A stretch of DNA of 64,000 nucleotides, from contig OZ024756.1 of NCBI GenBank assembly GCA_964016885.1, positions 6,882,001 to 6,946,000 on the forward strand, given 5' to 3'. Source of the stretch: Eledone cirrhosa (taxonomy: Eukaryota). Both the position numbers and the translations under genes were made by a program. The first letter of the stretch is position 1. Each line of letters opens with the position of its first letter. Below are positions 12,745 through 42,500 of this stretch, in pieces. Below the pieces are notes generated by a model that saw nothing but the letters and a program-made list of their open reading frames with translations, was not told where the DNA came from and made no database searches.

Positions 12745-13430
12745 AATGAAATTTCTTTTCTCACTCTTAGTACGGCTGTTACTTAAATGTAAGTATGTAT
12801 ACGTACATACATATATGGTATACATACGTACAGTAGTATATATATATATATACATACAAACAAACCGATAATTGTAATAAATGTTCGGTGAATCCATACG
12901 TACATATATATATATATATATGTGCATGTATGTATATATACATACTACTGTACGTCTGTATACATATATGTATGTATGTATACATACTTATATTTAAGTA
13001 AGAGCCGTACTATGAGTGAGAAATGAAATTTCGTTTCATTTTTTCCATTTATCGTTTACGGTGAGCCCGGCCGATTAACTCACTCAATATGCAAATTAGG
13101 CTGCTCAGCCGTTTATATGCATAAGGAAAGTATATACTTCCAGACGTTCAATCATCTGGCAGGAAGATATACGATGCTGACGATAGCTAATAAGCTTGAA
13201 ACTAGTACATCATTCCTTTGTCAGTGTTGAACAAAAGGGCAACGAAGGTTGCTAAACACCGTACGGCTTAATTCGAGATGTTTGTTTACAAAGAAAACGA
13301 ACATTGTAATAAATGTTTGGTAAATCCATACGTACATATATATATGTGTGCATGTATGTATATATATATATATATATATATATTACTGTACGTCTGTATA
13401 CATATATGTATGTACGTATATATACTTATA
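12745..13430. mobile_element. Family D hammerhead element: inverted arm plus ~438-nt tandem unit
   Basis: actgtacgtctgtatac recurs at 12947 and 13385; 12745-12840 is inverted relative to 12940-13030. Confidence 0.75.
13173..13211 (+). ncRNA. Minimal type I hammerhead, family D
   Basis: gatg-CTGACGA-tagct aata agctt-GAAAC ta GTA-catc; palindromic stem III actagt. Confidence 0.85.
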
Positions 13431-13624
13431 TATATATATATATATATATATATATATATATATATATATATATATATATGTATATATATATTTCGTTTCT
13501 GAATTTGTTATTGGCAACATGACCCTCCCAAAGTATAACAATATATATATATATATATATATATATATATATATATATATATATAGAGAGAGAGAGAGAG
13601 AGAGAGAGAGAGGGAGAGAAAACA

Positions 13625-13982
13625 GAAAACGAAAAATCAGTGATTCATCTGAACTCAATTTATTGTGTGTTACAATTGTTTCGCCGGCGGACAGCTTGAG
13701 ACGCGATCGTTGTGTGGATATGTCTGATTCTGGACCCGCAGGAACGACGGACACGTCTAATGATCATTAGATATGTCCGTCGTTCCTGCGGGTCCAGAAT
13801 CAGACAGATCTACACAACGATCGCCTCTCGAGCTGTCCACCGGCGAAACAATTGTAACACACAATAAATTGAGTTGAGATGCATCACTGATTTTTCGTTT
13901 TATATTATATCTTACTCTGCTCTGTAAGAGCATAGAGTGCTCAACCGGCATACTTCCTATGGAAGCATCTTAGCTACCATCA
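13625..13982. mobile_element. Fold-back family E element: ~275-bp palindrome
   Basis: Near-perfect palindrome centred on tgatca (13761-13766), containing the hammerhead 3' half GAAAC aatt GTA. The distal tail recurs inverted at 41755-41862. Confidence 0.75.
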
Positions 13983-14213
13983 GACACACACACACATATA
14001 TATATATATGTATATATATATATATATATATATATATATATATATATATATATATATATATATATATATATATATATATATATATATATATTTATATATA
14101 TATATATTTATATATATATATATATATATATATATATATATATATATATATATATATATATATATATATATATATATATATATATATATATATATATATA
14201 TATATATATATAT

Positions 14214-15260
14214 GTAGGAGGTGAGTTTTATTGTAGTACAATAAAGCAATGCAGATATCGGATAAGAAGCACTCTACAGTTTGTAGGACTGGAGTATACA
14301 TAATATAAGATCAAAAGATGGTTAAAGGAGTTCCATGTATTTTATTATGCGCATTTCAAAAACAAACATCATCATGCAATAATATTTGTGTTTTCATCAG
14401 ATAAAACAGGAGAACATGATATGGAGGCTAAAAAACACTTGTGGATAGTGCAGTTTTAAATCAACATATGAAAAGTGGTTTTAGATTGATGTGTGATATT
14501 GGGAAAAATATTTTATTTAGAGAGGGGGGGGGGTGGAAAGGATGAAAAAGGGGAGGAGATGAGAGGGAGAGATGGGTGATAGAGAGAAAGAGATAGTTTT
14601 TATAACTGAGAGGAGATATATTGTTTTATATAGAGAGGTTGAAAACCGTTGGAAGATAATGTATAAATTAAAAAAAATTTGAAAATTAACGAAAGGAGGA
14701 TATGTGCGAGGAAAAAGTATTTTATTTAGGGAGGGGGGTGGAAAGGATGAAAAAAAGGGGGAGGAGATGAGAGTGAAGGTGGAGAGGGAGAGATGGGTGA
14801 TAGAGAGAAAGAGATAGTTTTTATAACTGAGAGAAAGATATATTGTTTTACATAGAGAGGTTGAGAAACCGTTGGAAAATAATGTATAAATTAAAGGAAT
14901 TTGAAAATTAACGAAGGGAATTTATGTATGAAGATAGAGAGAAGAAATAATAATTGTGGATGAATATTCTAACGTCAAAAAAGGGTATGTTGTGGCAATT
15001 TCAAAATTAACGAAGAGAAAAATTATTAAGGTTTGTGTGTAGAAGGATTTGAGAAAAATAATGTGAAGTTAAAGTTTGTATATTGGAGGAATTGATAATA
15101 TATGCGAATAGAGTTAATATGTATTAAGAATGAGTTCGTTGATGGGGAGAAAAAAAAAAAAAAATTAAGGATGAAATTGAGATTAAAAAGATTTATGATA
15201 GAGAGAAAAAAATAATGATTGCGGATAAATATTCTAACGTCAAAAAAAATGTATATGTTA
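14214..15260 (-). mobile_element. Family C Penelope-like 3' region with hammerhead
   Basis: Starts at a (TA)n tract; internal direct duplication ~14508-14700 / 14718-14918; terminus shared with 23333 and 43868. The right boundary is approximate. Confidence 0.6.
14340..14406 (-). ncRNA. Type I hammerhead, family C
   Basis: ttttat-CTGATGA-aaacacaaat...gtttgttttt-GAAA tgcgc ATA-ataaaa; palindromic stem III atgcgcat. Confidence 0.75.
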
Positions 15261-15681
15261 TGAATGATTTTACAAGGTGAAGATAGAATGAGGGTAATGA
15301 GTAAACAAGTATTATAGAGTGTATAAAGCCCTTTAAAGTATGGTATATGTATATATTGTACATGTATATATTGTACCTTTTGATTTTTGATTTGGAATTT
15401 CAGTGTTGGTACAGATATATTATTATTATAATGTATTATACTGTGTTATATATAATTCCTGCTCTATATAACCAAATTTGTTTAGATTTAAGTTGGTGAC
15501 TTTGGACTATATTTGTAATATGGTTCTTAACGTTATCTACATCCTTAGTTATTATAATTTTATTATTTTTATCTTCATTTTTATTATCGTATATCTTTGT
15601 AAGACATTAGTGTATGTAAACTCCATATTCTTCAGAGTTTCGGGCTTGTATCTGCCGAAATTACCTCTTGTTGTTTTGATT

Positions 15682-15719
15682 GCCCTGATGAGTCCTTAAT
15701 AGGACGAAACATTGTCGGC
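15682..15719 (+). ncRNA. Minimal type I hammerhead
   Basis: gcc-CTGATGA-gtcc ttaata ggac-GAAAC att GTC-ggc; AATAAA at 15721; the element ends in (TA)n at ~15870. Confidence 0.85.
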
Positions 15720-40897: not shown

Positions 40898-41093
40898 TAG
40901 GAACGAGTAGGACCCCGACGGCTGAGCTCAAGCCGTTTCGACGGCTAATTCGGAGTCCAGAATTAGCCGTCGAAACGGCTTGAGCTCAGCCGTCGGGGTC
41001 CTACTCGTTCCTATTACCCACTCTACTACCCTAAGTATTGAGTACTTTGGTGCGTTATGGACCACCTGGTTCCTTACCACATTTCCTCCGTTA
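40898..41093. mobile_element. Fold-back family A element
   Basis: Arms ~40898-40951 and ~40960-41013 are perfect inverted copies. Confidence 0.75.
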
Positions 41094-41109
41094 TATATAT
41101 ATATATATT

Positions 41110-41299
41110 AGGGTGGTGGATTGGCAGTATCGGTAGAGGGTCGGACGCCATGCTTTCCAGCATAGTTACGTCCCTTTACGATCTGAGTTCAAATCCCGCC
41201 GAGGTTGACCTTGCCTTTCATCCTTACGGGGTCGATAAAATAAAAAGTACCAGTAATGCACTGGGTTATTGCTGGCCTTGTGCCTAAAGTAGAAACAGT
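41110..41299 (+). mobile_element. SINE family 1, full length
   Basis: A box, B box, core and tail all present. Confidence 0.88.
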
Positions 41300-41417
41300 T
41301 ATATATATATATACAGATTTATATATATATACATAAAGTCATAGATATATATATGTGTTTTGCAACCTGTCACGTTGTGGCTAAATGAAGAATTAATAAA
41401 TTAAATAATCCGAGTAA

Positions 41418-41570
41418 TATATCATAAATCATGTCCTTAGAATTATTAGATAAAATATATACCATTTCCTCTCCCAATTAGCATAATTAACCATTGGTTA
41501 ATTATGCTAATTGGGAGAGGAAATGGTATATATTTTATCTAATAATTCTAAGGACATGATTTATGATATA
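41418..41570. repeat. ~150-bp perfect hairpin next to (TA)n
   Basis: Centred on aattaacc att ggttaatt. Confidence 0.85.
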
Positions 41571-42014
41571 TATATATATATATATATATATATATATATA
41601 TATATATATATATATATATATATAAAAGACTCGCAGAGTAAATATATATTATATGTACAGACTAAATTTTAAGCAAAGAATCGCCTTTTATGGGATCTTC
41701 ATTATATATATATATATATATATGTGTGTGTGTGTATGTGTGTGTGTGTGTGTGACTGATGGTAGCTAAGATGCTTCCATAGACGGTATGCCGCTTCACC
41801 ACTCTATGCTCTTACAGAACAGAGTATGATAGAATAGAAAACGAAAAATCAGTGATGCATACATATTTTTAGTTTTCTATTCTCTCTCCCCCCCCCCTCT
41901 CTCTCTCTCTCTCTGTATATATATATATATATATATATATATATATATATATATATATATATATATATATATTTATATATACAATATATATTTATTTAAT
42001 TATATATATATAAA

Positions 42015-42500
42015 TGGAAAAAAAATGAAATTTCATGTCTCACTCTTAGTGCGACTGATACTTAAATATAAGTATGTTTACGTACATACATATATGTATA
42101 CAGACGTACAGTAGTATGTATATATATATATACATACATACACATGCACACATATATATATATATATATATATGTACGTATGGGTTTACCGAACATTTAT
42201 TATAATGCTCGGTTTGTTTGTAAATAAACAGCCCGACTGACAGGAAGGTATACGGTGCTGATGACAGCTAATATGCTAGAAACTAGTTCACCGTTCCTTT
42301 GTCAGTGTTGAACAAAAGGGCAACGATGGTTGCTAAACACTGTACGGCTTAATTCGGGCTGTTTGTTTACAAACAAACCGAACATTATAGTAAATGTTTA
42401 GTAAACCCATACGTACATAGATAGATGTGTGCATGTATGTATGTATATACATACGACTGTACGTCTGTATACATATATATATGTACGTATACATACTTAT
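42015..42500. mobile_element. Family D element with hammerhead at 42253-42293 (plus)
   Basis: cggtg-CTGATGA-cagctaatatgcta-GAAAC ta GTT-caccg; inverted arms. Confidence 0.75.

Follow-up and report, generated by a model that had tools for sequence, protein, structure and literature searches.

Predicted hammerhead repeats in Eledone cirrhosa and the evolution of a helix I base pair among their copies

Three insertions of a hammerhead repeat

The window, that is, the whole stretch of 64,000 nucleotides analyzed here (Eledone cirrhosa, contig OZ024756.1, positions 6,882,001 to 6,946,000), holds four of the more than 12,000 genomic copies of a repeat designated family D. The following features were located.

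12744..12858, minus strand: insertion 1, short inverted arm with the long outer end of the monomer (BLAST blocks, locus L091)
12855..13434, plus strand: insertion 1, forward arm, about 1.3 monomers long, with its short end in (TA)n (BLAST blocks, locus L091)
13089..13096, plus strand: octamer ATGCAAAT, upstream of the insertion 1 ribozyme, role putative
13156..13224, plus strand: type I hammerhead motif of insertion 1, predicted cut after 13207
37869..38376, minus strand: insertion 2, minus arm, short end in (TA)n (locus L001)
38067..38135, minus strand: type I hammerhead motif of the insertion 2 minus arm, U-G state
38383..38793, plus strand: insertion 2, plus arm, reaching the long end (locus L001)
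38398..38405, plus strand: octamer ATGCAAAT in the insertion 2 plus arm
38465..38533, plus strand: type I hammerhead motif of the insertion 2 plus arm, U38483-G38519 (T38483 in DNA), predicted cut after 38516
42010..42236, minus strand: insertion 3, inverted arm with the long end (locus L061)
42237..42505, plus strand: insertion 3, forward arm from the ribozyme start to the short end in (TA)n (locus L061)
42237..42305, plus strand: type I hammerhead motif of insertion 3, old lineage (U7, C10.1/A11.1, U17)

The original prediction described four stem I variants, at 13173, 38079, 38481, and 42253, and all four motifs were found there, with CUGA starting at 13177 (+), 38114 (-), 38486 (+), and 42258 (+). 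The core and the palindromic ACTAGT are intact in each, as had been claimed. The three reported states of the pair 2.3:1.3 were also confirmed: A-U at A13174-U13210 (T13210 in DNA), which stands on a G-U lineage background; the dominant-lineage state U-G at T38483-G38519 and again at T-G 38117/38081 on the minus arm, where helix II carries a private change; and G-C at G42255-C42291. However, the motifs at 38079 and 38481, although both real, are the two arms of one insertion. Thus, the window provides three independent samples, not four. Stem I at 13173 had been given only 4 bp because its position 5 is broken (C-A), a break that is likely CpG decay.

The type I core (C3 U4 G5 A6 N7 G8 A9, G12 A13 A14 A15.1, U16.1 H17) is present in the type I order, and it is invariant in all lineage consensuses and in a 468-nt sister family. 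Three helices were identified. Helix I has 6+3+5 bp and helix II has 4 bp, both backed by two-sided changes relative to the sister family, while helix III consists of one pair plus CUAG, and positions 10.1/11.1 form a mismatch. Both families have AGGUA in helix I and a loop 2 containing AA, candidate partners of a tertiary contact between loops 1 and 2. For distal helix I, a register of GGA with UCC was replaced by AGG with CCU, which is kept in both families. In the energy model, the predicted active fold comes to -8.5 kcal/mol in the monomer, whose MFE is -18.4, and to -33.8 in the dimer. Three of the four window copies fold no better than shuffles (z -1.1, +0.9, -0.5, and -2.5).

The family D unit and its dispersal

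The family D core matches 12,499 sites genome-wide and the reversed control none, an abundance far above chance expectation. The monomers form tandem arrays of 420-445 nt, and 58 of the 79 spacings shorter than 600 nt measure 420-444 nt. No ORF of 120 aa lies within the unit, apart from microsatellite frames. The copies are scattered and 5′-truncated, their 3′ ends are fixed, inverted arms occur, and LTRs are absent. Judging from these sequence features, family D is a non-coding mobile repeat of about 425 nt with a predicted type I hammerhead in each short tandem unit, a non-LTR retrozyme, and it probably spread through an RNA intermediate. Among two-armed insertions, 38 of 46 have one long and one short fixed end, and 75 of 104 short ends lie in (TA)n. 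Tandem or inverted insertion, a one-sided tail, and a microsatellite target all agree with insertion of the Penelope type. A GIY-YIG ORF fragment, the one of six candidate locus ORFs that matched Pfam, adjoins one copy (L005).

The general searches returned little on family D. The output of Tandem Repeats Finder and of a repeat finder was dominated by microsatellites, and Rfam gave solely microsatellite-driven miRNA matches. Scanned at E 10, the two copies between 38040 and 38560 matched none of its hammerhead models. This miss reflects a limit of the library, not a defining feature of the hammerhead class.

Such elements have known relatives. Metazoan non-LTR retrozymes are described as non-coding tandem monomers of 150-450 bp, each with a type I hammerhead, in thousands of copies (Cervera and de la Pena 2020, PMC7229834). 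Family D resembles them in monomer size range, in the one hammerhead per unit, and in copy number, but its insertions are two-armed and 5′-truncated. The palindromic helix III, predicted to act as a dimer, is shared with the hammerheads of Penelope-like elements (PLEs), for which dimer function was likewise predicted (Cervera and de la Pena 2014, PMC4209133). In contrast to those, the family D motif has internal loops in a long helix I, its 4-bp helix II resembles that of the canonical motifs, the G10.1-C11.1 pair is lacking, and the copies read carry no attached ORF. PLE insertions have been described (Craig et al. 2021, PMC8557442), and retrozymes have been treated as non-autonomous PLE derivatives (Li, Clavereau and Pollet 2026, 10.64898/2026.07.22.740005). 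As in these accounts, family D shows 5′ truncation, partial tandems, an inverted 5′-truncated copy, a tail at one end, and (TA)n targets, while its tail is about 50-56 nt, against 30-40 in PLEs.

These sources (PMC7229834, PMC4209133) already cover elements of this kind, their helix III as a palindrome, and covariation across families of genomic hammerheads. PMC7229834 does not mention octopus or cephalopods, and the relevant part of the giant squid genome paper only counts its 235 hammerhead loci. A literature search found no paper on cephalopod retrozymes, although the supplements of the papers may hold cephalopod motifs.

History of the pair 2.3:1.3

Is the variation at this pair evidence for selection on the fold, as the original prediction argued? 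The copy set comprised 418 sequences, of which two were too short to cluster and were dropped. Clusters 2 and 5 of the 11 (22 short copies with tails that run into flanks) were excluded from the consensus tests, and the 56 columns of the TA hairpin were excluded throughout. Using my own R-scape-like G-test with a tree-based null (416 copies, 60 null alignments), no column pair was significant. The pair 2.3:1.3 ranked 39 of 55,945 with an E value of about 73, and 36 column pairs that are not base-paired scored higher. Thus, the argument from covariation at this pair to selection failed, by the criterion that the original prediction itself had named for its refutation.

The genome-wide counts of exact 37-mers indicate what occurred instead: U-G 5,281, A-U 2,156, G-U 1,823, U-U 210, and A-G 77. 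G-U has no example in the window, yet it is the state of two whole lineages; it is the hub state of this pair and was overlooked at first. Both A-U and G-C are a single transition away from it, and the lineage-fixed states are G-U (old and middle lineages), A-U, and U-G. G-C was considered as a third lineage state and rejected. Its genome-wide count covered the old background, where it occurs seven times against 642 G-U, and 6.9 are expected from neutral T>C change. All 16 G-C copies of the first sample came from a query-biased search, with none among 141 position-ordered copies. The G-C at 42253 arose from the old lineage's G-U by a private T>C change, that is, by post-insertion decay, although it looked the most convincing of the states. 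Nor does the A-U at 13173 stand as a separate compensatory state, since its flanks are those of the G-U lineage and 8 of its 12 nearest neighbors are G-U.

It is likely that the history ran from G-U to A-U in one step and, once, from G-U through U-U to U-G in two steps. The change from G-U to U-G is the sole two-sided change at this pair, and it occurred once. The mismatched states exceed neutral expectation (U-U 210 against 67, A-G 77 against 45). Thus, templates with a mismatch at this pair are not purged in any strict sense. The idea of a clean U-U intermediate lineage was only partly upheld: U-U turns up on all backgrounds, chiefly in U-G sub-lineages, alongside about two to three intermediate haplotypes (L248, L250, and L262) and several insertions carrying U-U in all units. 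G-G, which could also have served as an intermediate, occurred in one of 418 copies. The A-G copies were considered as recombinants at the cleavage site, but only 1 of 11 (L309) looks mosaic, and the others look like point changes. The pair seems tolerant, since wobble or Watson-Crick pairing would work and U-U templates were still being copied.

The paired changes in the window thus appear to be mostly single mutations in copies that seem to decay freely, and the inference drawn from them was mostly an overreading. This makes a worked case in which covariation among transposon copies misleads, with three states in the window standing for one two-sided event.

As a separate observation, the spreading lineages changed 10.1/11.1 from C-A to U-U on both bases without fixing a Watson-Crick pair. 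They also flipped the wobble from G-U to U-G without fixing G-C, and kept the one-pair helix III.

Lineage-fixed and private changes

Private changes fall on the core (67/2690, 2.5%) as often as outside it (1057/40331, 2.6%), and the core is damaged in 61 of the 247 copies taken as unbiased. The CpG within the core shows C7>T in 6 and G8>A in 6 of 198 copies. Since the unbiased set contains neighbors of U-U-selected matches, the test was repeated on the strictest sample, where the core rate was somewhat lower (10/857 against 236/13064, p=0.23). Weak constraint on inserted copies is therefore possible. This non-significant difference is what host selection for intact ribozymes with an exapted function could point to, but the damaged cores and a private core rate equal to the background make such selection extremely improbable.

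The lineage-fixed changes behave differently from the private ones. Nine lie in the 69-nt ribozyme, at N7, at H17, at each base of 10.1/11.1 and of 2.3:1.3, at two bases of internal loops, and at one wobble/A-U site. None lies at the 11 invariant core bases. That sparing taken alone is not significant (P=0.19), while sparing of the core together with change at both free core sites has P=0.004, and two pairs changed on both sides has P=0.028. In a further test, the whole monomer was folded from one lineage alone and the states of the other lineages were scored. These states kept the pair in 14/20, 16/22, 16/22, and 11/14 cases (70-79%), whereas private changes did so in 26-27% (Fisher p 9e-6 to 7e-5, the four runs reusing the same events).

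It may be that no selection acts on the fold within family D, and that a few source copies chanced to expand with their differences hitchhiking together. This does account for the signal at the pair 2.3:1.3. It also agrees with the tree-aware test, in which covariation was as strong between unpaired columns as between paired ones, and with lineage-variable columns being equally common inside the ribozyme (9/69) and outside (about 39/300). However, it is quite unlikely, because it leaves unexplained the 70-79% pair-keeping against 26%, the fixed changes on N7 and H17 but never on the invariant core, and the sister family, whose core is kept while its helices were rewritten in pairs. The sister family is 62% identical to family D (187/302 outside the core), with the core (11/11) and CUAG (4/4) unchanged. 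Of 21 pairs, 8 changed on both sides, matched by 0 of 500 shuffles, in a comparison that is one family of two identical rows, first noticed through its core, with one helix register chosen with it in view.

Mutational bias offers another route that would need no selection: if the folded RNA undergoes A-to-I editing, an A-U pair has become G-U by the time it is reverse-transcribed. Of the lineage changes that keep a pair, at least five are A/G exchanges of the wobble type within helices (columns 46, 189, 359, 376, and 398), and without such changes the pair-keeping test weakens to p=0.012, 0.03, 0.24, and 0.37. On the other hand, private A>G (44/5958) does not significantly exceed T>C (31/6243, p=0.10; p 0.26-1.0 in the other lineage groups), and editing is unable to yield G>U, U>G, C>U, or the transversion pairs of the sister family. 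It would itself require a folded RNA intermediate. I regard it as very unlikely. Quasi-palindrome correction at the DNA level, by template switching or conversion of hairpin arms, would suit a hairpin-rich monomer and clean Watson-Crick replacements, for example of T-A by C-G at columns 28/398. Under this mechanism, both strands should end up with Watson-Crick pairs, whereas the lineage states show G-U to A-C ratios of 10:0, 12:0, 7:0, and 8:1, against about 1:1 in private changes, and G-U to U-G is not a DNA pair. Such correction is highly improbable as the source of the compensatory changes, and the excess of G-U points to plus-strand RNA.

Taken together, it is probable that the fold of family D is kept by selection only in the lineages that are recopied, and that inserted copies decay neutrally. 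The states in the window would therefore be the U-G lineage state plus two likely single transitions from G-U. The claim of selection on the fold in source lineages, and not neutral decay, thus survives for those lineages by way of the private-versus-lineage tests and the sister family, not by the route first proposed, while it does not extend to inserted copies. Multimeric transcripts would self-cleave, most likely as double hammerheads, a form suggested by a helix III of one pair under a palindromic CUAG cap. A host ligase may close the monomers into circles, and a reverse transcriptase/endonuclease of the Penelope type may copy them into (TA)n. New lineages would arise only from RNAs still able to fold and cut. 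Fold preservation in spreading lineages, which is likely here, is what would be expected of this known kind of retrozyme. A literature search for the private-versus-lineage test gave no match, although it was too narrow to call the test unpublished. The result is a quantitative genomic picture of a retrozyme under selection only during replication, and it supplies natural variants of known copy success for cleavage assays (U-G, A-U, G-U, U-U, and G-C; C-A against U-U).

According to PMC7229834, the axolotl HHR_Amex1 has a single-pair helix III with a palindromic tetraloop cap, and in the axolotl HHR_Amex2 a U-U mismatch lies at the helix II base. Family D joins both weakening features in one motif, with C-A at 10.1/11.1 in the old lineage. 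That it was selected to remain a deliberately weak ribozyme is a rather unlikely reading. If true, the monomer circle would stay shut with cutting by dimers only, the 12,000 copies would serve as a naturally occurring mutational scan of the strength permitted to a replicating ribozyme, and the U-U intermediates would have been captured mid-change.

A literature search on the octamer ATGCAAAT found nothing. It is also retained in the 468-nt sister family.

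Copies of family D in the window and the origin of pair 2.3:1.3

Searching the window for type I hammerhead cores whose stems pair gave 14 motifs. Four of them are copies of family D, a non-coding repeat of about 425 nt, and are listed here with the state of the third pair of helix I (pair 2.3:1.3).

Family D copies in the window
13177, + strand: type I hammerhead core, family D (copy 13173); pair A-U
38114, - strand: type I hammerhead core, family D (copy 38079); pair U-G
38486, + strand: type I hammerhead core, family D (copy 38481); pair U-G
42258, + strand: type I hammerhead core, family D (copy 42253); pair G-C

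Reading of the window confirmed the four locations and pair states of the original prediction, and the core and ACTAGT are undamaged in all four copies. One insertion (37869-38793) supplies both U-G copies, one per arm, which leaves three independent samples in the window, not four. The original prediction had taken these states as compensatory changes reflecting selection on the RNA fold. The observation holds, and the selection reading holds in part, on evidence other than this pair.

From 307 loci, 418 distinct copies were taken, and 416 were clustered on 71 columns outside the ribozyme. The pair is fixed as G-U in the old lineage and in one middle lineage, as A-U in three clusters and as U-G in three. 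Exact 37-mer genome counts were 5,281 (U-G), 2,156 (A-U), 1,181 (G-U), 210 (U-U) and 77 (A-G) in the common background, and 642 (G-U) and 7 (G-C) in the old one. The rate of private T>C changes (those in single inserted copies) in the old lineage predicts 6.9 G-C copies; on a tree that excluded the ribozyme, the G-C copies are spread over the branches, and many sit in an insertion alongside a G-U unit. Thus, the G-C at 42253 is not a compensatory state but decay that happens to pair. In the 13173 copy, the flanks are of the middle lineage and the neighbours mostly G-U, so one G>A transition (rate in that lineage, 2.4%) is the most likely source of its A-U; a genuine A-U lineage exists separately. 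The all-copy tree places a single G>T at 2.3 (clade of 181) and a single T>G at 1.3 (clade of 169), apart from small reversions, which fits a path G-U -> U-U -> U-G. Neutral change would give 67 U-U copies, a third of the 210 counted; the state turns up in every background, and units within an insertion often have it in common; therefore, U-U templates were copied. A-G is found at 1.7 times expectation.

Covariation was assessed by a G-test with APC in my own implementation, whose null re-deals substitutions along the tree (416 copies, 338 columns, 60 nulls). None of the 55,945 column pairs was significant, the top one being 10.1/11.1 (E 3.7). Pair 2.3:1.3 ranked 39th with an E of about 73, outscored by 36 unpaired column pairs; a lack of significant covariation at this pair was the result that the original prediction had named as refuting it. 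One change on both sides, passed on to thousands of copies, is by itself no evidence of selection.

Private changes, lineage-fixed changes and a sister family

The decay of inserted copies is neutral-looking. Private changes number 67/2690 in the 11 invariant core bases versus 1057/40331 in the rest of the unit, and 10/857 versus 236/13064 (p=0.23) in a stricter sample of 79 copies picked by non-ribozyme sequence. Both bases of the core CpG change in inserted copies, with C7>T in 6/198 and G8>A in 6/198; of the two, only N7 varies between lineages. The nine lineage-fixed ribozyme changes include none in the invariant core, while both free core positions changed (P=0.004); the sparing of the invariant core, tested alone, gives P=0.19.

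The circular monomer of one lineage was folded and the other lineages were scored on that fold. Lineage states kept the pair in 70-79% of cases versus 26-27% for private changes, and wobbles to A-C stood at 7-12 to 0-1 versus 1:1. RNA editing could have produced the pair-keeping A/G wobble changes: significance drops once they are removed (p between 0.012 and 0.37), yet private A>G shows no significant excess over T>C. Editing is thus not demonstrated, and I regard it as improbable without rejecting it. Outside the ribozyme the compensatory series are cleaner, at columns 186/201, 28/398, 214/382 and 241/268 of the aligned monomer (e.g., window 38547/38562); an A-U/G-U/G-C series sits in a hairpin 3′ of the ribozyme, and U-A -> C-G at 28/398 in a stem upstream.

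The strongest evidence for selection on the fold is a 468-nt sister family (loci L015:2364-2953 and L095:2134-3068), retrieved by the core and also by BLAST outside it. The sister retains all 11 core bases and CUAG; its identity to family D is 52% over the remaining ribozyme columns and 62% beyond the ribozyme. In a 10-row alignment, 8/21 pairs are altered on both sides, seven owing to the sister alone; 0/500 shuffles attain 8 and slid controls reach at most 3, in what is a single comparison with the AGG/CCU register picked with the sister in view. The AGGUA loop, the octamer and the TA hairpin are also common to both families.

Predicted ribozyme fold

Helix I is built of 6 pairs, AGG with CCU, and 5 further pairs, with an internal loop behind the first of these segments and a second loop behind AGG/CCU. 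Helix II has 4 pairs with a closing U-U mismatch at 10.1/11.1 (C-A in the old lineage), and helix III is A15.1-U16.1 alone, capped by CUAG. Axolotl retrozymes, which are described as cutting efficiently only as dimers, offer a precedent for a helix III of one pair with a palindromic loop and, separately, for U-U at the helix II base (PMC7229834). The energy model, applied to a natural U-G copy, gives its active fold -8.5 kcal/mol in the monomer (MFE -18.4) and -33.8 kcal/mol in a double hammerhead, in agreement with such dimer-type cutting. Single copies folded no better than shuffles in 3/4 cases, and an Rfam scan of two family D copies did not detect the hammerhead. Family D RNA may self-cleave; selection for a weak, dimer-gated ribozyme seems rather unlikely. 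Covariation among genomic hammerhead families and the palindromic helix III have already been published (PMC4209133).

Family D as a repeat and other features of the window

In this microsatellite-rich 3.0-Gb animal genome, 12,499 sites match a 32-letter core pattern (reversed control, 0) and 9,274 a 17-letter pattern outside the ribozyme (control, 4). Units are spaced 420-444 nt apart in 58/79 spacings, in groups from pairs up to long arrays; one array of the U-G lineage (G000:C1:51.77-51.79 Mb) has at least 45 units spaced about 428 nt. The unit qualifies by its sequence as a non-LTR retrozyme, defined as a non-coding tandem unit carrying a type I hammerhead (PMC7229834; 10.64898/2026.07.22.740005). 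Copies, which are 5′-truncated, stop at either of two distances past CUGA, about 251 or about 301-307 nt. Both kinds of end are combined in 38/46 two-armed insertions, as they are in all three of the window; short ends run into (TA)n in 75/104. In truncation, arms, fixed ends and (TA)n target they resemble insertions of Penelope-like elements (PMC8557442). At L028:964-2719 and L085:589-1825, adjacent opposite arms come from separate lineages (U-G beside A-U or beside G-C); one insertion may have landed inside another, or a single event may have used two templates.

What is observed is the copy number, the arrays, the fixed ends, the lineages, the neutral-looking decay and the pair-keeping fixed changes. 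In the proposed life cycle, arrays would be transcribed and dimers cleaved; a host ligase would close the monomers into circles, a step reported for other retrozymes (PMC7229834), and a Penelope-type enzyme would copy the RNA. Penelope-like ORF fragments lie near family D copies at L005:1879-2634, L040, L026, L004, L107 and L120; only L005 has a Pfam GIY-YIG match, as a neighbour rather than an identified partner. The ATGCAAAT octamer (window 13089-13096 and 38398-38405) lies in a block conserved with the sister family, some 88 nt 5′ of the core, and is a possible promoter element. Newt satellite 2 has an snRNA-type promoter; a literature search found neither this promoter nor anything on the octamer.

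Hammerhead-like motifs occur in the window at a mean of one per 4-5 kb. A second family (1883+, 6571-, 6703+, 23692-, 23846+, 54316-), partly in head-to-head pairs, has stem I ttttat/atgaaa, a long helix II and a helix III of TATRTA type. Further type I-like motifs, from three or more additional families, lie at 14400-, 43968-, 52989- and 40753-. Rfam Hammerhead_1 matches 15679-15723 (+) at 31.7 bits against a gathering threshold of 34; helix II there is canonical (G10.1-C11.1), and the region of the cleavage site is damaged. A MITE-like 422-nt inverted repeat (10271-10692 and 12216-12637; 93% complementary, 1.5 kb apart) adjoins the insertion that carries copy 13173. A 790-aa LINE ORF with APE endonuclease and RT (Pfam RVT_1, Exo_endo_phos) lies at 57233-59605 (-), and a tandem array of about 36 copies of a 62-nt unit, made of microsatellite pieces, at 19362-21593.
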